This document shows positions 3,473 to 26,863 of a DNA stretch of 64,000 nt, piece by piece; the stretch's first letter is position 1; every line of letters starts with the position of its first letter. A program made the translations under genes and the position numbers. The stretch comes from Planctomycetota bacterium. Lineage in GTDB: Bacteria; Planctomycetota; JAFGQW01. The stretch lies in assembly GCA_016935485.1 (NCBI GenBank), contig JAFGQW010000084.1:1450-65449 (forward strand), in the 5' to 3' direction. The notes under the pieces are model-generated. The model was not told the DNA's origin. It saw nothing but the letters and a program-made list of their open reading frames with translations, and ran no database searches.

Positions 3473-3474
3473 CG

Positions 3475-9149: not shown

Positions 9150-9151
9150 AC

Positions 9152-10831
9152 ATGCTGTGGGAAACGCTGAGCGCGGCCCGCGACCTGGGGCGGTTGCACG
9201 CCATCGCCTCGGTGCTGGTCCGCTACGGCTTCAGCGACCTGGTGCGCCGCCTGGGCATGAGCCGCGTGCTCGAGAAGGCCGGCCGCGCGCTCCGCTGGAA
9301 GCGCCTGGAGCGCATGGCGCGGCTCACCCCGGCCCAGCGAACGTGCCAGGCTCTCGAGGAGCTCGGCCCCACCTTCGTCAAGCTCGGCCAGCTGCTCGCC
9401 ACCCGGGTCGACATGCTCTCGCCCGAGTGGATCGAGGCGTTCGAGACGCTGCAGGATCGCGTGCCGTTCGTGCCCTTCGACACCCTCCGGCCCCGCATCG
9501 AGGAGGAGCTCGGCACCCCGCCCGACGCCGTGTTCGCGAGGCTGGATGCCGAGCCGGTCGCCGCCGCGTCGCTCGCCCAGGTGCATCGCGCCTGGCTCGC
9601 CGACGGCACGCCGGTGGCCGTCAAGATCCGCCGGCCGGGGGTCACCCAGACGATCGCCGCCGATCTCAGGCTGCTGGAGCGGCTGGCGGAGATCGCCGAG
9701 ACGGAACTGCCCGAGTTCCGGCGGTTCCGGCCGCGCGAGCTCATGCGCCAGTTCGGCCGCGCCATGCGGAAGGAGCTCGATTTCTCCCAGGAATGCCGCC
9801 ACGCCGAGCGCGTGGCCCGGACGTTCCGCGAGGTGCCGTACTTCAAGGTCCCGCGGGTCTACTGGCAGTGGACCACGCCGCGCCTTAACGTGCAGGAGTT
9901 CGTCGAGGGCATCGCCGGACGGGATCTCGCGCGGGCGAAACAGAGCGGGCTCGACCCGAAGGTGCTGGCCGAACGCGGCGCCCGGATCGTGCTGAAGATG
10001 ATCTTCGAGGACGGCTTCTTCCACGCCGACCCGCACCCCGGCAACCTCTTCTACCTGCCCGACAACCGGATCGCGCTCATCGACTTCGGCATGGTCGGCC
10101 GCCTCACCGAGACCCGCCGCCAGGAGGTCGTGCGGCTGCTGACCGCCCTGGTGGATCGCGACGCGTTGGGCGCGGTGGACGTGCTGGCCGACTGGTCGGG
10201 CGAGCGCCCCGTCGAAACCGAGTCCCTGGCGGCGGAGATCGACGAGTTCATCGACGACTACCACGACCTCGCGCTGGGTCAGATCGATCTGGGGGCGATG
10301 CTGTCCGACATGATGCGCGTGGTCCGCGAGCACGGGGTGGCGCTCCCGCACGGGCTGGCGCTGCTGATCCGCGCGCTGATCTCGCTCGACGGCGTCGGCC
10401 GCCGCCTCGACCCGGAGTTCAGCGTCGTCGAGGCGGCACGCCCGTTTCTCCGGCGCACGATGCGGGAGCGCTACCGCCCGGAGGCGATCGTCCGGCGGGC
10501 CCGCCACAACCTGGCCGAGACCGTGGATCTGCTCATCGGTCTGCCGCGCGACGTCCGGCGCCTGGTCAAGGCCGCGCGGCGGGGCGCCATCCAGCTCAAG
10601 CTGGATCTCGGCCGCCTGGACCAGTTCGGCAAGCAGCTCGACCGCGCCGCCAGCCGTCTGACCGTGGGGCTGGTCACCGCCGCCATCATCATCGGCACCG
10701 CCATCGTGATGACCATGGCGAGCGGGCTGACGCTCTACGGCATCCCGCTGCTCGGCTACCTGGGGTTCCTCACGGCGCTGCTCGCCGGCGCCTGGCTGCT
10801 CGTCTCCATCTACCGCAGCGGCCGGGGATGA
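9152..10831 (+). CDS. ubiB: UbiB/ABC1-family atypical kinase (ubiquinone biosynthesis regulator).
   Basis: Internal Met of ORF 8291..10831. ABC1/ADCK motifs (ASLAQVHRA...VAVKIRRPG, FFHADPHPGNLF, DFGMVGRL). Two C-terminal TM helices. 559 aa. Confidence 0.88.
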   Translation: MLWETLSAARDLGRLHAIASVLVRYGFSDLVRRLGMSRVLEKAGRALRWKRLERMARLTPAQRTCQALEELGPTFVKLGQLLATRVDMLSPEWIEAFETLQDRVPFVPFDTLRPRIEEELGTPPDAVFARLDAEPVAAASLAQVHRAWLADGTPVAVKIRRPGVTQTIAADLRLLERLAEIAETELPEFRRFRPRELMRQFGRAMRKELDFSQECRHAERVARTFREVPYFKVPRVYWQWTTPRLNVQEFVEGIAGRDLARAKQSGLDPKVLAERGARIVLKMIFEDGFFHADPHPGNLFYLPDNRIALIDFGMVGRLTETRRQEVVRLLTALVDRDALGAVDVLADWSGERPVETESLAAEIDEFIDDYHDLALGQIDLGAMLSDMMRVVREHGVALPHGLALLIRALISLDGVGRRLDPEFSVVEAARPFLRRTMRERYRPEAIVRRARHNLAETVDLLIGLPRDVRRLVKAARRGAIQLKLDLGRLDQFGKQLDRAASRLTVGLVTAAIIIGTAIVMTMASGLTLYGIPLLGYLGFLTALLAGAWLLVSIYRSGRG

Positions 10832-10843
10832 CCGGCGCCGCCG

Positions 10844-11953
10844 TCACCCCTCGGCCCTTGCCAGCCGGAGCGGGCGCAGCATCTTGTCGCGCTGCGCCTC
10901 GGAGAGGACCACGTTCAGGTAGGTCGGCCGGTGGCCCTCGCGGAACGCCCACACCTGGAGCGCCAGGCCGCGCGGGAGGTGGTCGATCCGGTAGGCGCCG
11001 AGGTTGTCCGTGCGCCCGGTGATCTCGGACATCTCCTTGACGTAGCGGTAGCGGAACCGGCAGCGAACGCTGACCCCCTCGAGCGGCCGGCCGTCAGAAT
11101 CCGTCACCACGCCATGCACCGCCGCTCCGCGATCCAGCCGGATCTCGAGCCGGTGACGCTCGCCCGCGGAGCGGGGCTCCAGCGCGGCATAGCCGGGTGC
11201 GAATCCGTCGGCGGTCGCCTCGATCGGGAAAGGCCGCTCGCCCGCGGGAAGCAGGGGGAAGTGCGCGAACCGGAAGGTGCCGTCCGGCGCGGTCAGCACG
11301 GTCAGGAAGCGGCCGTGGAGTTCCCGGACCAGGGTGACGCGGGCCCCGCCCACCGGACCGCTGCCGTCCGCGGCCAGCACCACCCCCTCCACCTCGACGC
11401 CGGGCTCGAGCACGAGCTCCACCCGCTCGGTGGCGCCGTCGGCCAGGTCGACCCGGAAGCCCTCCGCCCGCGCCACGGCCGGAGCGAAGTCGGGATGGAA
11501 GGCCCCGAGCCGGTAATGCCCGCCGGGCAGGAAAGCGAAGGCGAATGCCCCGGCAGCGTCGGTCGCGACCTCGAGCTCGCCGCGGGGATGGGAGAGGCAC
11601 ACGCGCGCCGCCGCCACCGCGCGCCGCTGCGGATCGAGGACCCGCCCGAGAATCGCGCCGCCGCGCGCCGCGGGCGCCGGCGGCGCCCCGGGTTCAGTCC
11701 GCTCCCGCGCGGCCGCCCCGACCTCCGCCGCCACTGCCTCCTCCTCCTGGCGCGCCGCGGGCCGGACCGGCGGTATCGGGTTGGCGGCCCGCGGAACCGC
11801 TGGCCGCGCGCCACGCACGAGCGGCGCGGACGGGGACGGCGCGGCCGGACGCGGAGATCCCTCCTCCGCGGGGCTCGACAGGACGACCAACCCCGAGGCG
11901 CCCAGCAGCACGGCAAGCGCCGCAGCAATGACGGAAAAGCGGGCCTTGGACAC
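10844..11953 (-). CDS. Secreted or membrane-anchored protein with repeated carboxypeptidase-regulatory-like (CarboxypepD_reg) beta-sandwich domains and a Pro/Ala-rich linker.
   Basis: 369 aa. N-terminal signal anchor (FSVIAAALAVLLGASGLVVL). Three repeats of the pattern G-x-V-x-D-x-x-G-x-P-[LV]-x-G-[AV]-x-V. Confidence 0.6.
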   Translation of the reverse strand: MSKARFSVIAAALAVLLGASGLVVLSSPAEEGSPRPAAPSPSAPLVRGARPAVPRAANPIPPVRPAARQEEEAVAAEVGAAARERTEPGAPPAPAARGGAILGRVLDPQRRAVAAARVCLSHPRGELEVATDAAGAFAFAFLPGGHYRLGAFHPDFAPAVARAEGFRVDLADGATERVELVLEPGVEVEGVVLAADGSGPVGGARVTLVRELHGRFLTVLTAPDGTFRFAHFPLLPAGERPFPIEATADGFAPGYAALEPRSAGERHRLEIRLDRGAAVHGVVTDSDGRPLEGVSVRCRFRYRYVKEMSEITGRTDNLGAYRIDHLPRGLALQVWAFREGHRPTYLNVVLSEAQRDKMLRPLRLARAEG

Positions 11954-12316
11954 GACCTTCTCCCGGGTACGGCGGCTCCGGGCCGACCTCCGCTTTTTTC
12001 GACGCTACGTCCACGCCGCCTGCAGCGCCGCATCGCGACGACGCAAGGGCATCTGGCAGAGCGACTTGGACCGGGTCAACCGGCGCGTCGATCTCCCTGC
12101 GAGAAATCTCCGGCCCGCTGCAACGTCGTGGCCGGCTCGGCGGTTTCTAGCCCCCGGAAAAGGAGACTCGGGGACCGGCGGGAGTCCTTCGGATCGGCAA
12201 CCGGCGGAACGAGGGGAGATCCGGCCCTGATCCTGCTCGCCCGGGCTCGGGGCGCGGATCTCCCGGGGGATTGCCGGTCCGCGCCCGCGACCCCGCATGC
12301 GCCTCTTTCGCGGGCT

Positions 12317-13783
12317 CTACTGCTCCAGGATTGCGGCGCGCTCGGCCTCGACGGCCTGCCGCTCGGCCTCGGACAGCTCGCCGGCGGGATAGTCTCCCGT
12401 GAAGCAAGCGGTGCAGAAGGCCCGGATCTCGCGGTTGCCCGCCCGCGCGGCGTCCACCATGGCGTCGACCTCCTGGTAGAAGACCCGGTCGGCGCCAATC
12501 TCCGCCGCGATCTCCTCCAGGGTGTGGTCGGCCGCGATGAACTCCTTCCGGGTCTGCATGTCGATGCCGTAGTAGCAGGGGAAGCGAATCGGCGCGGAGT
12601 AGGACAGGAAGTAGACCTGGCGCGCCCCGGCTTCGCGCGCCAGCCGGACGATCTGCCGGGAAGTGCTGCCGCGGACGATGGAGTCGTCCACGAGCAGCAC
12701 GCGCTTGTCCTCGAACTCGAAGCGGATGGCGTTGAGCTTGCGGCGGATGTTCTGCTCGCGCTGGAGCCGGCCGGGCATGATGAAGGTCCGGCCGATGTAG
12801 CGGTTCTTCACCAGCCCCTCGGAGTACTTCACCCCTAGCTCGGTCGCCATGGCGGTGGCGGCCGGACGCGCGCTCTCCGGCACCGGGATGATCACGTCCA
12901 CCTCGATGCCGGTCTGCTTCCAGGCGCGCGCCAGGCTGCTGCCCATGCGCGTGCGCGTCTTGTAGACGCTGATGCCGTCGATGACACTGTCGGGGCGTGC
13001 AAAGTAGACCTGCTCGAAGATGCACGGCCGGGGATCGCCGGGCGCCACCTGCCGGGACACCATGCCGCCCATCGCGTCGAGGAACACCGCCTCGCCCGGC
13101 CGGAGGTCGCGGGCGCCCTGGAAACCGAGCAGATCCAGGGTGACCGACTCGCTCGCCACGCAGTGCTCGACGCGCCCGCCGGCCGAACGGCGCTCTCCCA
13201 GGATGCAGGGCCGGATGCCGTGCGGATCGCGGAAGGCGAGGATCCCGTGACCGGCGACGAGCGCCACCACCGAGTAGGCGCCCTTGACCCGCGTGAACAC
13301 GCCGCGCACCGCCCGGAACAGGTCCTCGGCCTTAAACGCGCGATCCGCGCGCGTCACGACGCCCTTGTCGAGCTCGTCGGCCAGCACGTTGAGAATGACC
13401 TCGGCGTCGCAGTCCGAGTTGACGTGGCGGCGATTGTCCCGGAAGAGCTCGGCCTTGAGCTCGCGGAAGTTGGTAACGTTGCCGTTGTGCGCCAGCGCAA
13501 TGCCGTAAGGCGCATTGACGAGAAACGGCTGGGCATCCCGCCCTTTGCCTTGGCCGACCGTCGGATAGCGCACGTGGCCGAGCCCGAGTTGGCCCGTGAG
13601 ACGCCGCATGTGCTTCAGGCCGAAGATGTCGCTCACCAGCCCGAAGCCCTTCTTCAGGTGGAAGCGGTCGTCGAAGGTCACCATGCCCGCCGCATCCTGC
13701 CCCCGGTGCTGGATGGAGATGAGGCCGTTGTAGAGATCGTGCACGACGTGGCCTTCGCCCCGGATCGCGATGATGCCGCACAT
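12317..13783 (-). CDS. purF: Amidophosphoribosyltransferase (purine biosynthesis).
   Basis: N-terminal MCGIIAI (Ntn Cys1). PRTase motif (VLLVDDSIVRGSTSRQIV). Fe-S cysteines (CTACFTGDYP). 488 aa. Confidence 0.96.
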   Translation of the reverse strand: MCGIIAIRGEGHVVHDLYNGLISIQHRGQDAAGMVTFDDRFHLKKGFGLVSDIFGLKHMRRLTGQLGLGHVRYPTVGQGKGRDAQPFLVNAPYGIALAHNGNVTNFRELKAELFRDNRRHVNSDCDAEVILNVLADELDKGVVTRADRAFKAEDLFRAVRGVFTRVKGAYSVVALVAGHGILAFRDPHGIRPCILGERRSAGGRVEHCVASESVTLDLLGFQGARDLRPGEAVFLDAMGGMVSRQVAPGDPRPCIFEQVYFARPDSVIDGISVYKTRTRMGSSLARAWKQTGIEVDVIIPVPESARPAATAMATELGVKYSEGLVKNRYIGRTFIMPGRLQREQNIRRKLNAIRFEFEDKRVLLVDDSIVRGSTSRQIVRLAREAGARQVYFLSYSAPIRFPCYYGIDMQTRKEFIAADHTLEEIAAEIGADRVFYQEVDAMVDAARAGNREIRAFCTACFTGDYPAGELSEAERQAVEAERAAILEQ

Positions 13784-13907: not shown

Positions 13908-16553
13908 TCAATGGACGCGCCCCGCGGGAACCAGGTCGAAGCTCGAGCGATCGCCGTCGGCCCAGAAGCCGATCTCGTCCACCGCAGCCTCCCCCGCGCG
14001 AGCGAACGCCACCTCGAGCGTCCGCGCGGCCCCGGCCGCACCGCGGCCGCGGCCCTCCCGCTCCACGTAGCGCCCGCCGGTCGGCGGCAGGGCCAGGCGC
14101 TCGAGCTCCTCGCCCGCGCTCCCGCGCACGACCAGCGCGCCCTCGACCGTCGCGCGGTAGCGGATCGCGCAGCGATAGGGCCCCGGCGCGGCATCGGCGC
14201 ATTCCGCCCGGACCACGACGCCGGTTCGCCCGGCCGCCAGCACCGCGACGTGGAGATCGCGCGCGGCGAGATCGCCCTGCTTCTCGCCGGCGGCGCCAAG
14301 CCATGTCGCGCCCTTGAAGATCGCCCACGGACCGCGGTCGACCCGGCGCACGCCGACCAGGAGCTCGTGGCCGGCCACCCCGGCCGGAAGGACCGCAATC
14401 AGCCCGCCCTGCCACGCCCCCCCCGGCGCCACCGCATCGACCGTCTCCTGCCCGACGAGCGCGCGCAGCGCTCCTTCCGGCGAGCGCGTGAACAGGAACA
14501 GCTCGGGGCGGTGCGCCGCCGCCGGGTCCCGGTTCCTGAGGGTGAGCCGCACCTGCACGCGCTCGCCGGGGCCCGGCGCGGCCGGCGTGACGTCCACGGA
14601 AGTGAGCGCGATCCACGCACGTTCGATCCAGACCTCCGCCACCGCCGCGGCGGCGCCCGCCCGGCAACGGAAGCACAGCTCGAGCTGGCCGTCGTCGGCG
14701 ATCGCGCCGGAGGGCAGCGAATACGCGAGCTCGCGCGGCCGGAACGTCAGCGGCACGGGCCCGTGGAGGCGGTGCGCTCCCGCCCACAGCTCCTGGTAGG
14801 GCACGAGGCCGAACTTCCCCGCTTCGTGCCCGCCGTAGTACGTGACGCGCACCTGGCAGGGCTGACGCAGGTCGAGATCGCGGTAGCGGAAGCGAAGCTC
14901 CGGAGCACCCCACGCCACGTTCATCTCGGGCACCCGCGCCGTGGAGTAGGTGCCCCACGGCTCGTAGTCGCCGCTCCGGCCCGCCTCCCGCACGAGATGG
15001 GGCGCGGTCCGCGGATGGCCGGCGTCGTCGTAGCGCAGCACCTCGCCGCGGCGGAACTTCGCCTTGGCCGGATGGTAGTGCGGCAGCACCTCGAACCGCA
15101 CGACATAGACCGTGGCGAGCAGCGGCAGCGCCGCAAGCACCGGCGCCGCGATGCGGAATGCCGACACTCCCACCACGCGCCGCACCCCGGCCACCCCGAG
15201 CAACGTCGCCGGCAGGAGGACCGCGTGCAGGTCGCGGCCGGACGGCTGCTGGCCGAGGAGGCTCCAGACCAGCAGCGCCGCGAACGTGACGGCCACCGCC
15301 GCCAGGGCGAACAGCAGCGTGCGCCCGTCGAACCAGCTCAGAGCGGCCGCTGCTTCTTCCTCCTCGTCCGCGCCGGCGGCGGGAGGCACCTCGCCGCCCC
15401 TCGAGGCGGCCATCACGCGGGGATCGTCGGAGAGCACGAAATGCTCGGGCGACGCGAGCCGCGCCGGCGGGCGGCGCCCGCGGCACCAGGCGCGCCACCG
15501 GTCGCGCACCAGCAGCAGAACTCCGCCGGCGGCCACGCCTCCCAGCGCGAGGAAGACCAGCAGCAAGGGGCGGGAGAGGGCGAGCTCCCCGCCGCCGAGC
15601 TCCCCGAGATACCCGCGGACCAGACGCGCCGCGCCGTGGCCGAGGGCGCCTTGGTCCATGGCGAACCCAAGTGGCCGCTCCGGCCCGGCCGTCGTCAGCA
15701 GGAACCTCGGCACAAGCCCGTCGCGGGGAGCGAGATCGGCGAAGCACCACCAGCCCGCGACCGCGACGGCCGCGAGCGTGATCAGCGCCACCGCGCCGTT
15801 CCAGACGACGGCCGGGCGCCACGGCCCCACCGCGGCGAGCCCCACGGCGACGGGCAGCAGCAAGGCCGGGACCAGACCGCTCGGCCGGGTCATGACCGCG
15901 GCGCCGAGCACGAGTCCGAGCAGGACGGCGTGCCACGGCTCGGTCAGGAAACGGCCCGCCAGCGTGCGCACGTAGAGGGCGTAGGCCAGCGTGCCGAGTG
16001 CGGCAACGGCGATGGCATCCGACGCCACCGCGGCCGACAGGACCACGCCCGGAAGGAGCGCCCAGCCCACCGACGCGGCCACCGCGCGCCGGTGCACGCC
16101 GAGCGCCCAGCGCGCCCCGAGGCAAAGCCCGGCGAGCAATACCACGCCGAACAGCAGGCTCACCGCCCGCAGGGGATAGATCGGACTCGGCACGAGCTCG
16201 TCGCGGTCCGCGCGGCGCACGTACTCGATGTCCGTGCGGTAGGGACCGGGCAGGAACGAGAGGCGGCGAACCGCCTCGAGCCGCGGGCTCGCGGGGTCCA
16301 GACGGCCCGGCGCAGCGAACCTCAGCGCCGCTGCGCCCACGAGGTGGTACAGCGAGGGCGGACGCGGCGCGGCGAGCGGCGTGGCGGCGGCATCGGAACC
16401 ACCGGGGCTGTGGAGCCGGATGGCCCGGGCGAGGTGGGCGTCCTCATCCGGGCCCGCGCCGGCCGGGATCGCCAGCGCGAGGTAGCCGCCGAGCAGGACC
16501 AGCGCCAGGAGAGCGGCCGCTGCAAGAAGGCGAGAGACAGCGCGTGGGCTCAT
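13908..16553 (-). CDS. Large polytopic membrane protein, GT-C-fold glycosyltransferase-like (ArnT/PMT_2 family-like), with a ~350-aa C-terminal extracytoplasmic domain.
   Basis: 881 aa. About 12 predicted TM helices. First-loop acidic motif (GPDEDAHLARAIRL) resembles the DE/DD motif of ArnT/PMT enzymes. The soluble C-terminal domain has no recognisable family. Confidence 0.6.
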   Translation of the reverse strand: MSPRAVSRLLAAAALLALVLLGGYLALAIPAGAGPDEDAHLARAIRLHSPGGSDAAATPLAAPRPPSLYHLVGAAALRFAAPGRLDPASPRLEAVRRLSFLPGPYRTDIEYVRRADRDELVPSPIYPLRAVSLLFGVVLLAGLCLGARWALGVHRRAVAASVGWALLPGVVLSAAVASDAIAVAALGTLAYALYVRTLAGRFLTEPWHAVLLGLVLGAAVMTRPSGLVPALLLPVAVGLAAVGPWRPAVVWNGAVALITLAAVAVAGWWCFADLAPRDGLVPRFLLTTAGPERPLGFAMDQGALGHGAARLVRGYLGELGGGELALSRPLLLVFLALGGVAAGGVLLLVRDRWRAWCRGRRPPARLASPEHFVLSDDPRVMAASRGGEVPPAAGADEEEEAAAALSWFDGRTLLFALAAVAVTFAALLVWSLLGQQPSGRDLHAVLLPATLLGVAGVRRVVGVSAFRIAAPVLAALPLLATVYVVRFEVLPHYHPAKAKFRRGEVLRYDDAGHPRTAPHLVREAGRSGDYEPWGTYSTARVPEMNVAWGAPELRFRYRDLDLRQPCQVRVTYYGGHEAGKFGLVPYQELWAGAHRLHGPVPLTFRPRELAYSLPSGAIADDGQLELCFRCRAGAAAAVAEVWIERAWIALTSVDVTPAAPGPGERVQVRLTLRNRDPAAAHRPELFLFTRSPEGALRALVGQETVDAVAPGGAWQGGLIAVLPAGVAGHELLVGVRRVDRGPWAIFKGATWLGAAGEKQGDLAARDLHVAVLAAGRTGVVVRAECADAAPGPYRCAIRYRATVEGALVVRGSAGEELERLALPPTGGRYVEREGRGRGAAGAARTLEVAFARAGEAAVDEIGFWADGDRSSFDLVPAGRVH

Positions 16554-16690
16554 GCGATCGGTTCAACCGTCGGGCAGTCCAGGCGCCGCCGCGCGCCCGG
16601 CACCGGTCGGGTCGAAGGGTACGCGGGCCGCGGCCGGAATGCAACCCGCGATCGCGGCGCCCGCCCGCGCCGGCGCGGCGCCCCGCCGGC

Positions 16691-17833
16691 TCATGCCCGC
16701 CGCACCGCCTGGAACCGCTTCGCCATGCGTTTTTTCACCTCGAACCACCGCATGCGCGCCTGGCGGCGGTAGAAGTCGAAGTTGCGCGGCTCCACGGGAT
16801 TCTCGTTCACGAGAAAGCAGTTCTGGCAGAAGACGTTCAGCTTGCCGGTGTGGAACTGGCGGCGAAGCCGCCGCATGGCCGGCCCGTTCCAGATGCGGCG
16901 CATCGGCTCGCGGAGCGCGTCGCCGAGGTAGATGTCCGTCGGGTAGCAGCACGGAAACACCTCGCCGCCGTGGTTGACTCCGATACTCTGGCCCACGAAC
17001 CAGCAGACCCCGTCGTGGCGGAACTGCAGGAGCGGGGGATCCTCCGGCCGCGGCGGCGGATCGGCGATCACGTTGGGGTAGCCGATCTCGTGGAGGATCA
17101 CCGTCTGGTTGAGACGGCGCGCCTCCGCCGCAGTCTCGGCGACGATCGCGTCGAGCTCGGCCCGCGGCATGGCGGTCAGGATGTCCTCGCCTTCGAGGCC
17201 GGCGTGGGTCTTGAAGACGCGCTGCACGTGCAGCAGATCGAAGCCGAGCTCGCGCACGAAACCGACGAAGGCCGGCAGGAACCGCACGGTGCTCTTCAGG
17301 ATCGCCGCCTGACAGTGGTAGACGAAGGACTTGCCCTCCGCGTCCAGGATCGCCTTCATCATGCGCAGGTTGTCCACCACGCGCTCGTAGCTCGAGCGGA
17401 CCCGGATGCGCTCGTAGCCGTCCTTGTCGGGACAGTCCATGGAGACGTGCAGCAGATCGAAGAGCGCGCGGCTCGCCCGGAAGCGCTCCTCGGTCATGTT
17501 GAAGCACGAGGTGAACATATCGATCTTCACCTGGTAGTGCGCCGCGAGTGCCACGATCTCGTCGAAGTCGTTGATCAGCGGCTCGCCCGCGGCGGTCAGC
17601 ACCACCTTCCTGGCGGCCGGAAAGAGCTGGTGGCAGATGCGCTCCACATCGCGCAGCTTGACGGCGTGGATGGGCACCCCGGTGTGGTGCCAGCAGGTCA
17701 CGCACCGCAGGTTGCAAGCATTGGAGTGGTTGAGGTTCACGATCTCCGGCAGGCTCCGGAACACCTCGCGCTTGTCGCGCCAGTCCTGGCGGAGCCGGCG
17801 GCTGTTCTCGGCCTTGTATTCGAGGAGATCCAT
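16691..17833 (-). CDS. Radical SAM enzyme with a C-terminal SPASM/twitch-type auxiliary Cys cluster domain.
   Basis: Cx3Cx2C motif (CNLRCVTCW) about 40 aa from the chosen start. C-terminal Cys-rich segment (FPCCYPTDIYLGD...CQNCFL). Start chosen at the internal ATG (MDLLEYK), which has a GAGGAAG RBS. The ORF-track ATGATG start at 17932 has a poor RBS. 380 aa. Confidence 0.82.
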   Translation of the reverse strand: MDLLEYKAENSRRLRQDWRDKREVFRSLPEIVNLNHSNACNLRCVTCWHHTGVPIHAVKLRDVERICHQLFPAARKVVLTAAGEPLINDFDEIVALAAHYQVKIDMFTSCFNMTEERFRASRALFDLLHVSMDCPDKDGYERIRVRSSYERVVDNLRMMKAILDAEGKSFVYHCQAAILKSTVRFLPAFVGFVRELGFDLLHVQRVFKTHAGLEGEDILTAMPRAELDAIVAETAAEARRLNQTVILHEIGYPNVIADPPPRPEDPPLLQFRHDGVCWFVGQSIGVNHGGEVFPCCYPTDIYLGDALREPMRRIWNGPAMRRLRRQFHTGKLNVFCQNCFLVNENPVEPRNFDFYRRQARMRWFEVKKRMAKRFQAVRRA

Positions 17834-17965
17834 ACGCACTTCCTCGACCCGGGAATCGTCGAGACCGCGGACCGCCGACTCGTCGCCGGGATCGAGGTCT
17901 CCCCGGCGCCGCGGGGCAGGAGGCTCCATCATACTCCCGGTGCCGCGAAAGGGCCAGGACGGGGC

Positions 17966-18015
17966 TGTGCGGGGGTCCGGGGTCAGACCCTGTGCGGGGG
18001 TCCGGGGTCAGACCC
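17966..18015. repeat. Perfect tandem direct repeat, 2 x 25 nt (tgtgcgggggtccggggtcagaccc), in the divergent intergenic region. A third partial copy (cgtcagaccccgggcgg) follows.
   Basis: Read directly at 17966-17990 and 17991-18015. It lies between the radical-SAM start (17833, minus strand) and the GT-C gene start (18201, plus strand). Confidence 0.6.
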
Positions 18016-18056
18016 CGTTCCGAAGCGGAACGGCGTCAGACCCCGGGCGGCCTGAC

Positions 18057-18138
18057 CGCGGGCGCAATCCGCCCGCGCCACGCAGCGCGCGCCCTTCGCG
18101 CGCGACACCCGCACCCCCGCGGGCGCAATCCGCCCGCG
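18057..18138. repeat. Two copies of a 22-nt palindromic element (cgcgggcgcaatccgcccgcgc) about 60 nt apart. They flank a CG-alternating palindrome (gcgcgcgcccttcgcgcgcg).
   Basis: Each copy can form a 7-bp GC stem (cgcgggc/gcccgcg) with a 7-nt loop. Located 60-140 nt upstream of the 18201 start codon. The exact edges are ±2 nt. Confidence 0.5.
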
Positions 18139-18200
18139 CTGTGGTATGCTGGCGCGCCGGAATCCGGGTCGGGGTGATCTCGCTGTGACGGCGGAACGGT

Positions 18201-20039
18201 ATGCGGCGCGCGCTCGCTCTGGTCGCCTTGCTCGTCCTCGTGGCGCTCCCCCTCCGCGGGGCGCTCGACGTCGGTTTCCTGCAGGACGACTACAACGTCG
18301 CCCAACTGCTGGGCTCCGAGCTCGCCCTGGACGGGCCGACCCTCTACCGCCTCTTCCACCCGCCGGCCGACGAGCAGGACGCGCGACTACGGCCGCTGAC
18401 GTACCTGACCCTCGCCCTGGATCTGGCCGTGTTCGGGCTGGACCCGCTGGCGCTGCACTTGAGCGGGCTGCTCTTCCACCTGATCTCGACGGCCCTGGTC
18501 TTCGTCCTGGCAGGCGTGCTTGCCCCTCGGGCGCGCGCCTTCCCGTGGGTAGCCGCCCTGTTCTTCGGGCTGGCACCGGTGCACGCCGACGCAGTGGCCT
18601 GGCTCGCGGCGCGCGCCGATCCGGTCGCAGGCACGTTCGTGCTCGCCACCCTGCTCGCCTACGTGCGCTACCGGCGCACCGCCCGCCCGCTCGCCGCCGC
18701 GGCTTGCCTGCTGCTCTACGCGGCCGCGCTGCTTTCCAAGGAAGCCGCGGTCATCACCCCCGGCCTCGCCCTCCTCCTGGAGCCGGCGCTCCGCCGGCGC
18801 CCCCGGCCCGGCGGCCTCGTGCCCGCCCTGAGCGGGCTGGGCCTGCTCACCGCCGCCTACCTGCTCTACCGCCGTCATCTCTTCGGCGTCTTCCTCGGCC
18901 ACTACGGAGCCCGCGATGCCGCCTCGTGGTCCGTCGCTCCCGGCGACGTGACGTATGCCGGCCGCATGTTCCTCGCGGACGTTCCCGGGTCCGCCCTCGC
19001 GTCGGTGCTGCTCCTCGCGCCGATCGTCTTCGGAGCCGTCTGCCTTGTCATCGCGCGCCGTCCGCTCCGGGCGCGGTCGATCGCCGCCGGAGCGCTGCTC
19101 TTCCTCCTCGCGATCGTCGTGGCCGTGCTCCCGGTCGCGCCGTTTCTCGGCCAGGCCAGCGGCCGGCACTTCTATCTCGCGGCCGCACCGCTCGCCGGCC
19201 TGCTGGCGGCGGCCGTGACGGTACCGCGGCGGCGCGCGGCGGGAGCAGCGCTCCTGCCGGCCGCGCTCGTGCTGCTGTACGGAGCCGCGTCCGTCCTCGG
19301 GCTCCGGACGCGCATCGAGATGTACGTCGAGGCCAGCGCGATCACCGCAGCGGTGGCCCGAGACCTCGGGGCCCTGCGGGCCGCACACCCCGACGTGGCG
19401 GTCTTCGTGGTGGGCGACCTGCGGAGCGCCTGGCGCCGCGCACCGCTGCTGCACTCGGGCGCGGCCGGACTGGCGCAGCCGCCGTTCCAGCGCGAGCCGG
19501 TGCCGATCCGCGCGCACTTCGCCGGCCAGCCTCGGGACTACCGCTGGGAAGCGTACGTGATCCGCAAGCCGGCCGTCTTCCTTCGCCTGCGGACCGCCGC
19601 GCCGCTGCCGGGGCTCGAGCCCGTGTCGCCCATCCTGCGCTCGCTCCCGCCGCGGGAGGAAGACCCGGCCTACGCGTGCCTCTCTCCCGCCGCCGGCGCG
19701 GCGGTCCGCCTCGACGGCGACACCCCGTTTCGCTTCCGCATCCCCGCCGACCTGCCCTGGCCGATCCGCCTGGTGTTCGCGCTGCCGGGAGACCGGGTCG
19801 CGCCCCTGCTGATCGGAGCAACGAACGTCGTGGAGGAGCCCCCCGCTCCGGACCGGTCCCGCACGCTGGTCTGGCGGCCGCGCCAGGGCGCCCTCGGCCT
19901 GGCGGCGGCGCTGCCGCTCGAGGCCCCGCCCGCCGCGCCGGTGGGGGCGGCCTGGTGGATCGAGGAGGCGGACCTCGAGCACGCCGGCGTCCGGACCGTC
20001 CGCGCGAGCCCCGTCGCGCGATTCGTGGTCCAGCCCTGA
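18201..20039 (+). CDS. GT-C-fold glycosyltransferase-like polytopic membrane protein (PMT/TMTC-like), paralogue 1. It has an N-terminal TM bundle and a ~230-aa C-terminal soluble domain.
   Basis: 612 aa. First-loop motif FLQDDYNV. About 10-11 TM helices. The same architecture and motif are shared with the genes at 22140 and 24539. Confidence 0.6.
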   Translation: MRRALALVALLVLVALPLRGALDVGFLQDDYNVAQLLGSELALDGPTLYRLFHPPADEQDARLRPLTYLTLALDLAVFGLDPLALHLSGLLFHLISTALVFVLAGVLAPRARAFPWVAALFFGLAPVHADAVAWLAARADPVAGTFVLATLLAYVRYRRTARPLAAAACLLLYAAALLSKEAAVITPGLALLLEPALRRRPRPGGLVPALSGLGLLTAAYLLYRRHLFGVFLGHYGARDAASWSVAPGDVTYAGRMFLADVPGSALASVLLLAPIVFGAVCLVIARRPLRARSIAAGALLFLLAIVVAVLPVAPFLGQASGRHFYLAAAPLAGLLAAAVTVPRRRAAGAALLPAALVLLYGAASVLGLRTRIEMYVEASAITAAVARDLGALRAAHPDVAVFVVGDLRSAWRRAPLLHSGAAGLAQPPFQREPVPIRAHFAGQPRDYRWEAYVIRKPAVFLRLRTAAPLPGLEPVSPILRSLPPREEDPAYACLSPAAGAAVRLDGDTPFRFRIPADLPWPIRLVFALPGDRVAPLLIGATNVVEEPPAPDRSRTLVWRPRQGALGLAAALPLEAPPAAPVGAAWWIEEADLEHAGVRTVRASPVARFVVQP

Positions 20040-20162: not shown

Positions 20163-21236
20163 ATGAAACTGTCGTGTGGCCTCGGGTTCGGCTGCCTGGT
20201 GCTGGCCGCGGTGCTGGCTGCCCTCCCGTCGGCGGGCGCCCAGTCCGCCGGGGAGCGGTACAACCAGATCCTCCAGGAGACCGAGGAAGACTACTACAGC
20301 TGCGCCAAGGTCAAGGACAAGAAGGCGCGCGAGAAGGCCTACATCGAGCACGGCCAGCGCGCCACGGCCCTGTGGGAGGGCTTCCTCCGCGACCATGGTG
20401 AGACCTCCATGGCCTTCAATGCCAGGCTCAACCTGGCGCAGGCGCTCGACATGGCCAAGGAGACGGCGCGCGCCCGCGCGGTGATGGAGGAGGCCGCAGC
20501 CGCCGCGTACACCTTCCGCGAGATCACCCAGGCGGCCGAGATCACGAAGATCGTCTGCCACAGCGTGAAGGACGCCTACGACGTCATCGAGCGCGCCATG
20601 GCGAAGGTGGACGAGCCGGAGATGAAGGGCTCCCTCCACCTGGAGCTGTTCAAGTACCTCGAGATGCCGAAGAACCTGCAGGCGGACGAACAGCCGGCCC
20701 ACCGGAAGAAGATGTACCGCGAGCTCGCCGAGGCCATCGTCAAGCAGTATCCGGACACGAGCGCCGCCAAGGAGGCCGGGCTGATTCTCCGCGGGCTGGA
20801 CCTCAAGGTGGGCGATCCGCTGCTCAATCTCGCCGACTTCACCGACGCCGCGGGCGACCCCATCGATCTTGCCGCCTACTCGGGCAAGGTGGTCCTGCTG
20901 CACTTCTGGACCGGTCCGCGGAACGCCCGGCGCTCTCTCCAGACCCTCGTGAACCTCCACGGCGAGCTCCACCCCAAGGGACTCGAGGTCGTGGGCATCA
21001 ACTGCGACTACGCGGAGGACCACGAGCGCAACATGCTGGCCATGATCGAGGCGCTCGGCATCCCGTGGCGCAACTACCACGACGGCCAGAAGCTGCACAA
21101 CCGGATCGCCCGCATCTTCCACGTGCGCAAGTACCCCAGCAACATCGTGATCGGCCGCGACGGCAAGATCGCCGCCCTCGACGTCCCCACCGCCCAGCTC
21201 GAGGACAAGCTCCGGGAGCTCGTCGGCGGATCGTGA
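20163..21236 (+). CDS. Secreted TlpA/redoxin-like thioredoxin-fold protein with an N-terminal helical domain. The active-site CxxC is replaced (FWTGPRNARR), so it is predicted redox-inactive.
   Basis: Signal peptide (LVLAAVLAALPSAGAQS). The C-terminal ~150 aa are colinear with TlpA/ResA (GKVVLLHFW...LEVVGINCD...YPSNIVIGRDGKI), but both catalytic Cys positions are T and R. Confidence 0.7.
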   Translation: MKLSCGLGFGCLVLAAVLAALPSAGAQSAGERYNQILQETEEDYYSCAKVKDKKAREKAYIEHGQRATALWEGFLRDHGETSMAFNARLNLAQALDMAKETARARAVMEEAAAAAYTFREITQAAEITKIVCHSVKDAYDVIERAMAKVDEPEMKGSLHLELFKYLEMPKNLQADEQPAHRKKMYRELAEAIVKQYPDTSAAKEAGLILRGLDLKVGDPLLNLADFTDAAGDPIDLAAYSGKVVLLHFWTGPRNARRSLQTLVNLHGELHPKGLEVVGINCDYAEDHERNMLAMIEALGIPWRNYHDGQKLHNRIARIFHVRKYPSNIVIGRDGKIAALDVPTAQLEDKLRELVGGS

Positions 21237-22139: not shown

Positions 22140-24542
22140 ATGACCGACAAGCCCCACCCCGCCGGCCGGACGACCGTCGCGCTGGCCGCCATCGCCGTGA
22201 TGATCATAGCCGCCGTCGCCTACCTGCCGGCCCTCGACGACTCGTTCTTGCAGGACGACTTCCTCCTCGTCGGGCAGTTCTTCACGGACACCGGGACCTT
22301 CGAGCTCCCCCGCCAGCCCGCGCTGACCTTTCCCACCGGGTTCCTTCCGTTCTGGACGCACGTTCTCGACAGCTACCTCTGGGGCGCCCACGCCGTCGGC
22401 CACCGCATCACCAGCCTGCTCGTGCACGTGCTCGCCGCGCTGCTGGTCTTCGTGCTGGTCCGCAGAGTCGCCGGCGGCCGGACCCTGGTGGCATTCCTCG
22501 CCGCCGTCTTCTTCGTCCTCTCACCGCTGCACCTCAACGCCGTCCACTGGATCTCGGGACGCTCGCTCACGCTCGCGATCGTCTTCCTGCTCCTCGCCGC
22601 GCTGGCGGCGACCCGCCGCCGGCCCGCGCCGGTGCTTTCCGCCACGGCCTACCTGGCCGCGCTGCTCTGTCACCCCGCCGCCTTCACCGCGCCGCTCGTC
22701 GCGCTGCTGGTCGACGTGGTGGCCGGGCGCGGCGCCTGGCGCGGCCGCCTGCTGACCATCCACCTGCCGCTGCTCGCGCTGATGGCCGCTTACATCGTGT
22801 TCCAGTCCACGACCGGCGAGCGCCTCTGGCACACCCGGAACGTCCGCGCCGCGCTCGCGCCTGCGGTCCTCCTCGACACGCTCGCGCGCCTCATCGTCCC
22901 GCTCAACGAAGCAATCACCAACCCGGCCAAGGCCCCGCTGCTCAAGTGGGGCGTGCTGCTGGGTCTCCTTCCCCTGCAGATCCTGGTGCTGATCGTCCGC
23001 CGGGCAGCGCCGCCGCGTACGTTCTGGGTGGGGCTGATCTGGTTCGTGGTGATGCTGATCCCGATCCTGCCGTCGGCGCGCCTCGGGACGGAGCTGGCCG
23101 ACTCGCGCGTCTTCTACGGCGTGGTGCCCCCCCTTGCTCTGATGCTCGCGGCGCTGTTCCTCGCCGACACAGCGGTCTTCCGCCCCTCCGCCGGACGCGC
23201 CGCGGACCGCCGCGCGCTCGCCCGCGCCACGGTGTTCGCGCTGGTATTCGCGGTCTCGCTTGTCCTGGCGCTGGTCAAGAACGGCCAGGCCTACGCGGGC
23301 GCCGGCCGCCTCGTGCGCCACGTGCAAGACGCTGCGCTCGAAGCCGCGCGCGGGGAATCCGCGGATTCGTGGATCTACCTGATGGAGCCTCCGAGTGCCT
23401 ACGCCGGCGCGCCGGTGTTCGCGACGGGCCTCAAGCGGGCGCTCGCCCCGCCGTTCAGGACCGCCGCCGAAGCCCGCCGGATCGGCGTGGTGCACGTGCG
23501 CGACATGGCGCCGCTGCTCGAGCGCCTGCGCGGGGTCCACCCGCCGCTCGTCGTGCTGTGGATGCACGCCGCCGGGCTGGAGCCGCGCCGTCCGTTCGCG
23601 CGGATCTCGCCGCTGTTCCCGGCAACCGGCGAGCCCGACGAGCCGTTCCTGCCGCCACGGTTCGCCGGCGCGGAGCTCGCCACGTGGCGGCCAGACAGCG
23701 GGCTGGTCGGCGCGGCGGACGAGCGGGGTTTCGTGGGCCAGACCTCGAGCGAGGATCCCTGGCTGCTGTCACCACCGATGGTGATCCCGAGCGACTGGAT
23801 CGAGGCGGTCAGCGTGCGGATGAGCGTGCACGGCAGCCGGGAGCCCGTGCTCCCGGTGGATCTCTTCTGGGCCGAGCTGTCCCGGCCGGACGCCTTTCGC
23901 CCCGAGCGCTCCTGCCGCCAGTTCGTGCCCACGACCGGCGCGATGGAGACCCTGACTTTCGCGCTTTCGCCGCCGGACGGCGCCCGGCCGCCCGAGCGGT
24001 TTCTCGCGCGGCTCCGGCTCGATCCGCCCCCCGGGCCGGCCGCGGTGCACATCGAGTCGATCGCGCTCGTCCCGGGGCCCGGGTGCCCCTGCGCGCAGCG
24101 CGTGGCGGCATCCTGGGAGGGCCCGGAGCTCGCCGGCTGGACGGTCGCGCCGGGCACCACCGGAAGGCTCGAGAATAGCGACCTCGTGCTGCGGACCCAG
24201 GGCGTGGACCCCTACGCCGTCTCTCCGGTTCTCGACCTTCCGGCGGCCGCCCTGCGGGGGATCGAGGTCGCGCTGCGCGTGGACGCCGCGAGCACCGAGG
24301 CGGCGATCTACTGGGCCACGGACACTCCGGAAGGCTTCTGCGAGGAACAGCGCCTGCCCTTCACGGTCGCCGCCGGCGACGGCCAGTTCCACCGCTACAC
24401 GCTGTGGTTCCAGGAACGCGCTCGGCTGGCGCCGGACACGCGGATCCGGGCCATTCGCGTCGATCCGATGGCCGGTCCCGGCACGGCCTGGATCCGGCTC
24501 GTGAAGCTGTACCAGGACGCCCTCGACAGAGCACGACGATGA
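22140..24542 (+). CDS. GT-C-fold glycosyltransferase-like polytopic membrane protein (PMT/TMTC-like), paralogue 2, with a ~290-aa C-terminal soluble domain.
   Basis: 800 aa. First-loop motif SFLQDDFLLV. Multiple TM helices. The C-terminal domain is unrelated in sequence to paralogues 1 and 3. Confidence 0.6.
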   Translation: MTDKPHPAGRTTVALAAIAVMIIAAVAYLPALDDSFLQDDFLLVGQFFTDTGTFELPRQPALTFPTGFLPFWTHVLDSYLWGAHAVGHRITSLLVHVLAALLVFVLVRRVAGGRTLVAFLAAVFFVLSPLHLNAVHWISGRSLTLAIVFLLLAALAATRRRPAPVLSATAYLAALLCHPAAFTAPLVALLVDVVAGRGAWRGRLLTIHLPLLALMAAYIVFQSTTGERLWHTRNVRAALAPAVLLDTLARLIVPLNEAITNPAKAPLLKWGVLLGLLPLQILVLIVRRAAPPRTFWVGLIWFVVMLIPILPSARLGTELADSRVFYGVVPPLALMLAALFLADTAVFRPSAGRAADRRALARATVFALVFAVSLVLALVKNGQAYAGAGRLVRHVQDAALEAARGESADSWIYLMEPPSAYAGAPVFATGLKRALAPPFRTAAEARRIGVVHVRDMAPLLERLRGVHPPLVVLWMHAAGLEPRRPFARISPLFPATGEPDEPFLPPRFAGAELATWRPDSGLVGAADERGFVGQTSSEDPWLLSPPMVIPSDWIEAVSVRMSVHGSREPVLPVDLFWAELSRPDAFRPERSCRQFVPTTGAMETLTFALSPPDGARPPERFLARLRLDPPPGPAAVHIESIALVPGPGCPCAQRVAASWEGPELAGWTVAPGTTGRLENSDLVLRTQGVDPYAVSPVLDLPAAALRGIEVALRVDAASTEAAIYWATDTPEGFCEEQRLPFTVAAGDGQFHRYTLWFQERARLAPDTRIRAIRVDPMAGPGTAWIRLVKLYQDALDRARR

Positions 24543-26863
24543 GCACTGAGCCACCGCGGACCGCGAGCACGACCGTCTACACCGCGCGCTACCTCCTCTA
24601 CTCCACCGCCGGACTGCTCGCTGCGGTGCTCGTCGGCTACGCTCCCGTGCTGGCCAACCCCTTCCTGAGCGACGACCTCAACTTCCGGGTGTTCTTCCGC
24701 GGCGCCGAGCTCGACTGGGCGCGGATCCTCGGCGAGCTGTGGAGCGGCTGGGGCGGCCTGGTGGGCGCCGACTACTACCGGCCGCTGCTCACCGCGTCGG
24801 TGGTCGTGGACTACCTCGCCTGGGGAGCGAACCCGTTCGGCTGTCATCTGACCAACGTGCTGCTTCACACGCTCAACGCCACGCTGGTCGCGCACATCAT
24901 CATGCGGATCGCCGGCCCGGGAAAGCGCTACCCGGCGCTCCTTGGCGCGCTGGTCTTCGCCGTGCATCCCGTACACCCCGAGGCCGTTGCCTGGATTGCC
25001 GGCCGGGTCGATGTGCTCAGCGCCTTGTTCTTCCTGCTCACGGTGCGCTGCTACCTCGCCTATCGCTGGACCGGCCGGCGGCGCCACCTGATCGCCTCCC
25101 TGGTCGCGCTCGGCCTTGGGCTCGGCTCGAAGGAGTCGGCGGTGATGGCGCCGGCGGTGCTCGTCGCGCTCGACCTCGGGCTCAAGCTCGCGCGCGGCAC
25201 GCCGCGCTGGGGTCTCGGCGCCCGGACAGCGGTGCTCGCGCCGCTGGCCCTCGTTGCCGGCTACGTGGTGCTGCGCAAGCTGGTGCTCGGGAGCGTCGCG
25301 GGCAGCCAGGACCTACTGGCCCCCTACGCATCGGCCGGCGCGCTCGTCGCGACCCTCAAGCAGACGAGCATGAAGCTCTTCCTCCTGGTCGCGCCGGCCA
25401 ACCCCGCCGCGACGGGTCGCACGGGCGCCGCACTCTTCCAGGGGGCGGTGATCCTGATGATGCTGCTGCCGTTCCTCGCGCTGCTCACCCACGGCAAGCG
25501 CACCATTCCGGGGCCGCTTCTCGGCGGCGCGCTGATCCTCTTTCCCCTCGCGCTCGTGAGCCACATCCTGGTCGATCCCGACAACCTCGCCAACAGCCGG
25601 GTGCTCTACCTGCCGGCCGCGGGGTTCGTCGTGATGCTCTACTCGGCGCCGTGGGATCCGCGGGTCCGGCACGAGCTCCGCCGCCTCGGAGCGGCGCAGA
25701 TGGCCGTGCTGTCGCTGCTGATCGCCGGCGCCTACTTCGTCATGCTCCGCCTGAATCTCCGCCCGTGGACCGAGGCCGGTCGCATCATGAACACGCTCGT
25801 CCGCGAGGTCGACCGCGTCGAGGCCGACACGCCCGGCCACCGCAAGATCGTGGTGAAGGGGCTGCCCGACGTCCACCAGGGCGCCTACGTGGCGCGCAAC
25901 GGCTTCGTCTTTGCGCTGGTCCGCCCGTTCCACCACCGCGACATCACGCGGGTCTTCCCGGTGCTGGACTACTTCTACGGCCGCGACCCTGGAATGCTGC
26001 GCGCCGTGCACGGGGACCGGACGCGCATCGTGCTCTGGGACCTGGCGCGCCACCGACTGCTCGACCTGCCGCCGCCCCAGGAGGCCACCCACCAGATGAG
26101 CGCAGAGGACGGGCGCGCCTGGGCCGATCTGGCCGGCGGCGCGTGGACGCCGGAGCCCGGGCTCGAGCGGCAGGTGCACCCCGACGGCGGAGTGACGCTC
26201 GTCGCGCGGCGCGAGGGCGCCGGCCTGCGCGGCCCGGTGATGCGCATCTCCCCCGAGGCACTGCCGGCGCTCCGCTTCCGGCAGGCCGGCACGGCGCAGC
26301 TCGCGCTGGGCTGGTCCACGGCCGCCGAGCCCGACGTGTTCCCGACGAGCCCGGTGATGACGTTCCCGCCGCACGCGGGCGAGCGCACGGTGGCCCTGGT
26401 GAACCACGCCACCTGGTACCTGCCGGCCGCCCCGCCGGTGGGCCGACTGCGCCTTTCGGTCTGGCCGCAGAATACACCGCTGGTGCTCACCGACTTCACC
26501 CTCGTCCGGAGACTGCCGCGCCTGCCGCTCGCCATCGAGACCGAACCGCTGCTCCCCGAACCGGGAGCGCCCCTGGTGCTGCCGCTGCTGCGCTGCCCCT
26601 ACACGCACTTCAAGATCGTGATCCTCAACCCGGCCGCCCCGCACGCCGTGGCGATCGCGCGCCCGGCGGAGGCGGACACGCCGCTCGTGGTGCCGGCCGC
26701 CGGGCTCGCGCACCTCCACACCGTGGCCTGGGCGCTCGGAGGCTTCGAGGCCCTGCTGTATGTGGACGCGGTCGAGCCCGACCTGAACCCCCTCACCACC
26801 CGCGCGCGCAGCCGCCTCTTCACGGTGCGCTTCGCGGGCGCGGTGCGCCCCGGGCGGCGGTAA
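24539..26863 (+). CDS. GT-C-fold glycosyltransferase-like polytopic membrane protein (PMT/TMTC-like), paralogue 3. It is translationally coupled to paralogue 2.
   Basis: Internal Met of ORF 24404..26863. Its ATG overlaps the upstream stop (ATGA). First-loop motif PFLSDDLNFRVF. 774 aa. Confidence 0.6.
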   Translation: MSTEPPRTASTTVYTARYLLYSTAGLLAAVLVGYAPVLANPFLSDDLNFRVFFRGAELDWARILGELWSGWGGLVGADYYRPLLTASVVVDYLAWGANPFGCHLTNVLLHTLNATLVAHIIMRIAGPGKRYPALLGALVFAVHPVHPEAVAWIAGRVDVLSALFFLLTVRCYLAYRWTGRRRHLIASLVALGLGLGSKESAVMAPAVLVALDLGLKLARGTPRWGLGARTAVLAPLALVAGYVVLRKLVLGSVAGSQDLLAPYASAGALVATLKQTSMKLFLLVAPANPAATGRTGAALFQGAVILMMLLPFLALLTHGKRTIPGPLLGGALILFPLALVSHILVDPDNLANSRVLYLPAAGFVVMLYSAPWDPRVRHELRRLGAAQMAVLSLLIAGAYFVMLRLNLRPWTEAGRIMNTLVREVDRVEADTPGHRKIVVKGLPDVHQGAYVARNGFVFALVRPFHHRDITRVFPVLDYFYGRDPGMLRAVHGDRTRIVLWDLARHRLLDLPPPQEATHQMSAEDGRAWADLAGGAWTPEPGLERQVHPDGGVTLVARREGAGLRGPVMRISPEALPALRFRQAGTAQLALGWSTAAEPDVFPTSPVMTFPPHAGERTVALVNHATWYLPAAPPVGRLRLSVWPQNTPLVLTDFTLVRRLPRLPLAIETEPLLPEPGAPLVLPLLRCPYTHFKIVILNPAAPHAVAIARPAEADTPLVVPAAGLAHLHTVAWALGGFEALLYVDAVEPDLNPLTTRARSRLFTVRFAGAVRPGRR

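Follow-up and report, generated by a model that had tools for sequence, protein, structure and literature searches.

A predicted Twitch-type radical SAM enzyme beside GT-C-like membrane proteins in a Planctomycetota bacterium

The window analysed here is a stretch of 64,000 nucleotides from contig JAFGQW010000084.1 of a Planctomycetota bacterium (assembly GCA_016935485.1); the GC content across it ranges from 69 to 77%. On its minus strand, positions 16691-17833 code for a protein of 380 amino acids, a radical S-adenosylmethionine (SAM) enzyme with a predicted Twitch domain, as indicated by the open reading frame (ORF), Pfam matches and orthologues. The frame ends with a stop codon at 16691 and begins with an ATG at 17833, ahead of which lies the Shine-Dalgarno sequence GAGGA. 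It can be extended to a further in-frame ATG at 17932, which would yield 413 residues; in this extended form the GC content at third codon positions (GC3) is 0.91. The full-length close orthologues P0002, P0003 and P0005-P0009 comprise exactly 380 residues, and the aligned close orthologues start with MD[LF] at the methionine encoded at 17833. Because the 380-residue orthologues share this start, 16691-17833 is the likely extent of the gene, and the longer frame is unlikely to be the true one. The protein is 100% identical to a database entry named 'MAG: radical SAM protein [Planctomycetes bacterium]', which is located on a 71-kb contig.

Pfam assigned the protein a Radical_SAM domain (PF04055) with 50.0 bits (cutoff 29.5) and a SPASM domain with 45.9 bits (cutoff 21.5). 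An AlphaFold2 (AF2) model was obtained with a pLDDT of 86.2 and a pTM of 0.84, and a structure search showed that its partial TIM-barrel resembles many radical SAM structures. The enzyme is predicted to be soluble and cytoplasmic. Its basic C-terminal tail (residues 346-380, encoded by 16694-16798 on the minus strand) has an isoelectric point of 11.9, contains a predicted helix at residues 358-379, and is kept within the close clade. A role of this tail as an amphipathic membrane anchor was considered and is unconvincing, in view of a hydrophobic moment of only 0.2-0.44. Another radical SAM gene of the window, at 57861-58925 on the plus strand, codes for an ordinary and unrelated rRNA/tRNA methyltransferase of the RlmN type (RlmN_N and Radical_SAM domains).

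The predicted site of the SAM-cleaving [4Fe-4S] cluster is the CX3CX2C motif C40-N-L-R-C44-V-T-C47, which is encoded by positions 17693-17716 of the minus strand. In an alignment of 20 homologues, which reaches down to 21% sequence identity, the residues C40, N41, L42, R43, C44, and C47 are invariant. This motif and the PF04055 score above the gathering threshold are the two features that define the radical SAM superfamily. In the C-terminal part of the same alignment, only four cysteines are invariant, namely C277, C295, C336, and C339. They form the Twitch core C277-X12-G290-X4-C295(C296)...C336-X2-C339 (16817-17005, minus strand), which would accommodate one auxiliary Fe-S cluster. In the clade with at least 28% identity, C296 does not vary either. 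Beyond residue 339 the protein contains no cysteine, and none is conserved there among the homologues.

A SPASM domain is characterized by seven cysteines in the pattern CX9-15GX4C-gap-CX2CX5CX3C-gap-C, which bind two auxiliary clusters; the Twitch domain is its shortened form with one auxiliary cluster (PMC6231123). The end of the Pfam SPASM match falls exactly on the CX2C pair with C339. Because the match ends there, the Pfam model cannot separate SPASM from Twitch domains. At the sequence level, the protein agrees with the Twitch motif: it contains the four invariant cysteines at the right spacing together with the conserved G290, and it lacks the final three cysteines of the seven-cysteine SPASM motif. 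Since the four conserved residues correspond to the first four SPASM positions, one fully cysteine-ligated auxiliary cluster is predicted, similar to that of the dehydrogenase BtrN. Judged by these residues, the protein belongs to the Twitch type of radical SAM enzymes, for which a single auxiliary cluster is predicted here, and not to the two-cluster SPASM enzymes. An earlier note on this DNA, made without database searches, had described a radical SAM/SPASM enzyme. The assignment to the radical SAM superfamily and to the SPASM/Twitch group was correct, whereas the full SPASM domain is not present. The note had also named an absence of the auxiliary-cluster cysteines as evidence that would speak against it. 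The alignment points partly in this direction, because the first four are invariant and those of the second auxiliary cluster (AuxII) are lacking.

By sequence, the closest solved relative is BtrN, the 2-deoxy-scyllo-inosamine dehydrogenase of the butirosin pathway (PDB 4M7S/4M7T). In a profile search of the PDB sequences BtrN was the top match (E 5e-21); the alignment covers the radical SAM core as well as the Twitch domain, the latter with all four cysteines. CteB and DesII ranked below it, followed by PqqE, SkfB, and BlsE, and the anaerobic sulfatase-maturing enzyme (anSME) was found far lower (E 6e-10). BtrN contains a single auxiliary cluster with four cysteine ligands and performs a two-electron oxidation (PMC9012708). 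The two proteins share the auxiliary pattern C-X~17-C...C-X2-C, neither of them possesses a recognition element (RRE) for peptides that the ribosome makes and that are modified after translation (RiPPs), and BtrN itself acts on a small molecule. However, their sequence identity is only about 15%, which is not at equivalog level, and genes of the 2-deoxystreptamine pathway were not found among the window ORFs scanned. Comparison of the AF2 model with known structures gave figures of 21.4 for SkfB, 21.3 for SuiB, 20.1 for BlsE, 19.8 for CteB, 19.0 for DesII, 18.9 for anSME, and 14.6 for BtrN, which is a much smaller protein. Among these enzymes, SkfB is a Twitch-type sactipeptide synthase (PDB 6EFN) that differs from the protein studied here in its N-terminal RRE, its adjacent precursor gene skfA and its CXC ligand pair, all three of which are missing here. 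The auxiliary site of SkfB can hold a [2Fe-2S] cluster (PMC6231123). In contrast, anSME (PDB 4K36) has the full seven-cysteine SPASM domain with two auxiliary clusters. DesII and BlsE are carbohydrate-modifying radical SAM enzymes, as is SpeY (structure 7wzv).

A clear best match to a characterised subfamily had been named in the earlier note as evidence that would speak against it; comparison with the NCBIfam models gave no such match. None of the subfamily cutoffs was reached, neither by the protein itself nor by any of the 20 family members that were compared along with it, and no member of this set matched the anSME model at E<=1e-5. The top match was NF033640, 'twitch domain-containing radical SAM protein' (N_Twi_rSAM), with 63 bits at a cutoff of 170; all other scores were far below their cutoffs. 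This match relates Twitch to Twitch (profile positions 5-98), but in the NF033640 family the Twitch domain is N-terminal, whereas it is C-terminal here.

From the presumed SPASM domain, the earlier note had expected a peptide or protein as the substrate. This expectation loses its basis, given that four C-terminal cysteines indicate a Twitch domain, that no RRE is present and that the closest solved structure is a small-molecule dehydrogenase. In the AF2 model, only one helix (residues 3-19) lies ahead of the core, whose first strand spans residues 31-34, so that there is no RRE. None of the neighbouring proteins has a PqqD-like Pfam match. No cysteine-rich or leader-like small ORF is located in the flanking gaps 16554-16690 and 17834-18200, in line with what had been noted earlier; a small-ORF search with relaxed start codons over 16400-18300 yielded only out-of-frame, arginine-rich ORFs, which are typical of DNA with 72% GC. 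Likewise, the homologue contexts that were examined revealed neither a conserved small ORF nor a peptidase or exporter; a 72-residue ORF at the homologue locus L009 is poor in cysteine and not conserved in other loci. An Rfam scan of 16400-18400 gave only sub-threshold noise from eukaryotic miRNA and snoRNA models.

The presence of a domain of the FGE-sulfatase type had been taken as a parallel to anSME. In all, 48 ORFs were scanned, which cover most of the window except for 2474-3468, 7229-8290, 51117-51476, and 58926-61592, the largest gap with 2.7 kb. The FGE-sulfatase domain does exist, at 48084-51125 on the minus strand. The parallel fails, because the domain (residues 802-1004) is the C-terminus of a Ser/Thr kinase of 1013 residues, whose Pkinase domain spans residues 135-378. 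The product has the look of a sensor-kinase fusion, not of a formylglycine-generating enzyme. As had been stated before, the window appears to lack a sulfatase gene: none of the 48 ORFs matched a sulfatase family. With the AuxII cysteines missing as well, a link of the radical SAM gene to anSME or FGE was rejected. A match of the protein encoded at 10844-11953 (minus strand) to TIGR04134, 'radical SAM-associated putative lipoprotein', reached 23 bits at a cutoff of 39.8 and was treated as fold-level noise.

The genes on both sides of the radical SAM gene code for polytopic membrane proteins, and their earlier designation as GT-C proteins is borne out by a structure search for one of them; the other looks GT-C-like from an orthologue with a PMT domain and a weak DUF2142 match. 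The gene at 18201-20039 (plus strand) is divergent from the radical SAM gene and codes for 612 residues with a TMTC/PMT-like N-terminal part and a beta-rich C-terminal domain. This protein has no Pfam match. For its AF2 model (pLDDT 82.8), the top 17 Foldseek matches in the PDB are all GT-C proteins (probability 0.98-1.00, TM-score 0.30-0.48), among them ArnT, ALG12, STT3, AftA, AftD, Pmt4, and PglB. The first loop contains two invariant residues, D29 and D30. Distant homologues are tetratricopeptide repeat (TPR) proteins with TMTC-DUF1736 (PF08409) or PMT_2 (PF13231) domains. According to the model, the protein has a GT-C fold; a transferase activity is predicted. The second gene, at 13908-16553, lies on the same strand as the radical SAM gene and downstream of it after a gap of 137 bp. 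Its product of 881 residues contains some 13 hydrophobic segments, carries the motif PDEDAH in its first loop and ends in a beta-rich, extracytoplasmic C-terminal domain. The protein matches DUF2142 weakly (E 0.0065), its orthologue P0210 carries PF02366 (PMT), and from these similarities it looks like a GT-C-type protein of the DUF2142/PMT kind.

Two further paralogues of the GT-C-like genes were found at 22140-24542 and at about 24536-26863, so that four such membrane proteins are encoded inside 13 kb. Where the fourth gene starts is uncertain, as its ORF overlaps the third (24404 versus 24542). The loop motif F-[LQS]-x-DD is common to the N-terminal parts of three of the four proteins. In this group, non-TPR C-terminal domains replace the TPR part of the distant TMTC-like relatives, and for the 612-residue protein this domain is predicted to be beta-rich. 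Direct PDB sequence searches with three GT-C-like neighbours, the 881-residue protein among them, gave no matches. The gene at 20163-21236 (plus strand), which adjoins the 612-residue gene also in four related genomes, codes for a secreted thioredoxin-fold protein of the TlpA/AhpC-TSA type. It reads FWTGPRNARRS where TlpA-like proteins have WxxWCxxC; with the CxxC apparently missing, the protein may be redox-inactive.

The intergenic region between the two divergent genes (17834-18200) contains local repeats. These are an exact tandem pair of 25 nucleotides at 17965-18014, the motif GGGGTCAGACCCC at three sites, one of which is nearly palindromic, and an exact, hairpin-forming palindrome of 21 nucleotides, CGCGGGCGCAATCCGCCCGCG, which occurs twice, at 18057 and 18118, 61 nucleotides apart. 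Both motifs exceed all 100 shuffles, and the rest of the 64-kb window is free of these repeats. Operator sites or structures of a 5'-untranslated region are possible roles for them.

In order to judge the adjacency of the radical SAM and GT-C genes, homologous loci (designated by L numbers) were compared. The full block consists of an 800-residue GT-C gene, a CarboxypepD_reg gene, an isochorismatase gene, the TlpA-like gene, the 612-residue GT-C gene, in some cases a DinB gene, the divergently oriented radical SAM gene, the 881-residue GT-C gene, and purF. The same arrangement was found in a JGI contig and, with an additional transglutaminase-like gene following the radical SAM gene, in L011. 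Orthologues of the 612-residue protein are encoded near the radical SAM gene in L003-L005, L010, L011, and the JGI contig; L003-L005 and L010 keep no more than this side and have a Uma2 gene downstream of the radical SAM gene. The order radical SAM gene, 881-residue gene, purF is kept in L090, L011, and the JGI contig, and L092 retains the first two genes up to its end within the 881-residue gene. In L093, which stems from the same sample as L004, the 881-residue gene and purF are present with no radical SAM gene upstream; the order of the radical SAM and 881-residue genes is likewise broken in L003 and L010.

In other orthologues the neighbours are different. PmbA/TldD genes are found upstream in L089 (81% identity), and in L091 (61%) a GDSL gene lies upstream at a distance of 15 bp, with a GH172-like gene on the downstream side. 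L001 and L006 (71%) both contain ceramidase-like and class-III aminotransferase genes; in L001 they are accompanied by genes for an acyl carrier protein, a ketosynthase, a short-chain dehydrogenase/reductase, and a lipid A-type acyltransferase, and in L006 by three radical SAM paralogues and genes for an NAD-epimerase, a family 2 glycosyltransferase (GT2), and an AlgX-like protein. Relatives at 30-40% identity have heterogeneous neighbours, none of which is a GT-C gene. The GT-C adjacency is seen in the closest orthologues only. Because the block includes unrelated housekeeping genes such as purF and is interrupted by breakpoints on both sides of the radical SAM gene, this adjacency is a shallow, lineage-specific synteny and not evidence of function. 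For the same reason, nothing supports the suggestion that one of the extracytoplasmic domains encoded nearby is the substrate.

The radical SAM protein is conserved to the same degree as PurF (window positions 12317-13783). The identities are 72% for the radical SAM protein and 71% for PurF in L011, and 73% and 74%, respectively, in L090; in the same comparisons, the adjacent GT-C and TlpA-like proteins are 40-57% identical. This suggests strong purifying selection on the radical SAM enzyme.

Some further gene types were observed repeatedly near the homologues. CarboxypepD_reg (transthyretin-like) repeat proteins are encoded a few kb from the radical SAM gene in the window (10844-11953, minus strand), in L009 (1-3039), L087 (3310-6981), L010 (3827-5179), and L093 (14212-15324), which is probably due to the background abundance of this domain in Planctomycetota. 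A transglutaminase-core gene lies directly downstream of the homologue in two unrelated loci (L011 11143-12078 and L088 11971-13062). The window itself contains a single transglutaminase-like gene, a TgpA-like one 15 kb away (32383-35802, minus strand), beside MoxR and DUF58 genes; the proximity may be a coincidence.

A scan of one genome per species with a 14-sequence alignment identified 433 relatives, and those with at least 30% identity almost all stem from metagenome-assembled genomes of Planctomycetota. Among 1.84 billion cluster representatives, a profile search identified 10,695 sequences at E<=1e-30. Many of them are fusions, such as tandem radical SAM-Twitch proteins or combinations with TPR, class-III aminotransferase, sulfotransferase, or B12-binding radical SAM domains. 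The subfamily is uncharacterised and, by these searches, almost confined to Planctomycetota. In a sister clade (34-39% identity), the enzyme is fused to a C-terminal domain of about 360 residues with Asp-box-like SxDxGxSW motifs and the conserved motifs GEYGV.PGARC, HVHAV, and TTGD. Such fusions occur in L009 (11870-14164), L087 (7084-9240), L012, L015, L017, L018, L026, L028, L040, and L053 (match from about 10001), and a tblastn search with one of these C-terminal domains gave 16 further loci. Pfam recognized only a sub-threshold BNR repeat in it. The domain is probably a beta-propeller, whose fold could hint at the substrate; a separate gene for it is absent from the window. Members of the sister clade are often found beside class-I methyltransferases.

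De novo clustering of the neighbours at 28 loci revealed class-I methyltransferases in six loci and every other partner in at most three; these counts are approximate, as the crude GC3-based gene caller missed or over-extended some genes. There is no conserved operon partner. A dense context is that of the 71%-identical homologue in L006 (positions 1-13023; ENA ERZ24794676 NODE_18414). Here, a B12-binding radical SAM protein, a GT2 enzyme, three more radical SAM-SPASM/Twitch paralogues, a ceramidase-like protein, a class-III aminotransferase of 560 residues (Aminotran_3), an NAD-epimerase/dehydratase, and a GDSL/AlgX-like protein are encoded together. This looks like a tailoring cluster for a glycan or glycolipid with four Twitch/SPASM enzymes. 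An epimerase and methyltransferases are encoded near the homologue in L009, and Acyl_transf_3 (AT3) and GDSL genes near that in L025.

Our preferred explanation, which we hold tentatively and at somewhat less than even confidence, is that the protein works as a radical oxidoreductase or epimerase in the manner of BtrN and that its substrate is not a peptide but probably a carbohydrate or glycan. In the proposed reaction, SAM would be cleaved reductively, and the resulting 5'-deoxyadenosyl radical would abstract hydrogen from the substrate. A second electron would then pass to the auxiliary cluster, and this would amount to a net two-electron oxidation of CH-OH to C=O. Alternatively, a conserved cysteine, for which C296 is a candidate, could return a hydrogen atom and thus bring about an epimerisation. 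The most probable substrate would be a sugar, a cyclitol, or a (lipid-linked) glycan intermediate of the cell envelope. A carbohydrate or glycan is the most plausible choice because contexts with GT2, epimerase, GDSL, AT3, aminotransferase, and GT-C genes recur. They do so independently, in L006, L009, L091, and L025 and, with the GT-C genes, in the lineage of the window. Most likely, the substrate is not a ribosomal peptide, and the Twitch type, which includes small-molecule enzymes such as BtrN, largely accounts for the lack of a peptide substrate.

Several rival explanations have to be weighed against this reading. That the enzyme is a RiPP maturase of the sactipeptide, ranthipeptide or cross-link type, with a precursor encoded elsewhere in the genome, is unlikely. 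Besides the lack of an RRE in the AF2 model, the contexts examined contain no PqqD-like gene, no protease or exporter partner, and no small conserved ORF (the one in L009 being cysteine-poor and unconserved). The radical SAM protein is moreover conserved at a housekeeping level, and a slow divergence like that of PurF fits better to a conserved cellular substrate than to a variable peptide. Such conservation could also be reconciled with a lineage-specific housekeeping substrate like a lipid, a cofactor, or RNA. We regard this as rather improbable, since no similarity above cutoff to radical SAM families of this kind was detected, the protein has no RNA-binding domain and the hydrophobic moment of its tail is modest. 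A maturase for a protein or cofactor, either anSME-like or specific for a metalloenzyme, that would modify a folded or unfolded protein before export, for example the extracytoplasmic domain of a GT-C neighbour, is very improbable. The site for the second auxiliary cluster is missing, no anSME model matched at E<=1e-5, the NCBIfam scores all stay far under the cutoffs, the FGE domain belongs to a kinase in a window without a sulfatase match among the scanned ORFs, and the radical SAM gene and the 881-residue gene are apart in L003, L010, and L093.

The neighbourhood itself raises the question of a functional coupling to the flanking GT-C enzymes, for which the radical SAM protein would make or epimerise an unusual polyprenyl-phosphate-linked sugar donor on the cytoplasmic face of the membrane, to be transferred by the GT-C proteins on the outer side. 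GT-C enzymes use lipid-phosphate sugar donors and need cytoplasmic enzymes that modify them (PMC11127046). Furthermore, Twitch radical SAM enzymes are known as sugar dehydrogenases and epimerases (BtrN; SpeY), and GT-C neighbours have been kept in six related genomes (window, L003/L004/L005, L010, L011, and JGI contig, plus L090/L092 for the 881-residue gene). However, purF, an isochorismatase gene and an inserted DinB gene belong to the same block, which has breakpoints on both flanks of the radical SAM gene; the latter is divergent from the 612-residue gene and not co-transcribed with it. No polyprenyl-phosphate glycosyltransferase or flippase is encoded in the immediate block, and the relatives at 30-40% identity do without a GT-C neighbour. 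We consider such a coupling improbable. Even less probability is given to the wider proposal that the enzyme is the cytoplasmic, donor-modifying part of a GT-C glycosylation system of Planctomycetota. In this system, a polyprenyl-phosphate- or nucleotide-linked sugar would be oxidised or epimerised, and the flanking GT-C paralogues would transfer it to an envelope glycan or protein. If it existed, it would represent a radical, oxygen-independent counterpart of the epimerisation of the DprE1/DprE2 type.

With respect to the family as a whole, the protein may be seen as an ordinary member, one among tens of thousands of uncharacterised SPASM/Twitch enzymes. Its analysis illustrates that a Pfam "SPASM" match does not tell SPASM from Twitch domains; here, making this distinction removes the expectation of a peptide substrate. 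It further delineates a well-conserved Twitch clade, almost restricted to Planctomycetota and without a characterised member, whose paralogues occur in clusters with multiple radical SAM enzymes, aminotransferases, epimerases, and GT2 enzymes. If the substrate is an envelope glycan or a lipid-linked sugar, the enzyme would bring a radical reaction into the biochemistry of the planctomycetal cell envelope, about which little is known.

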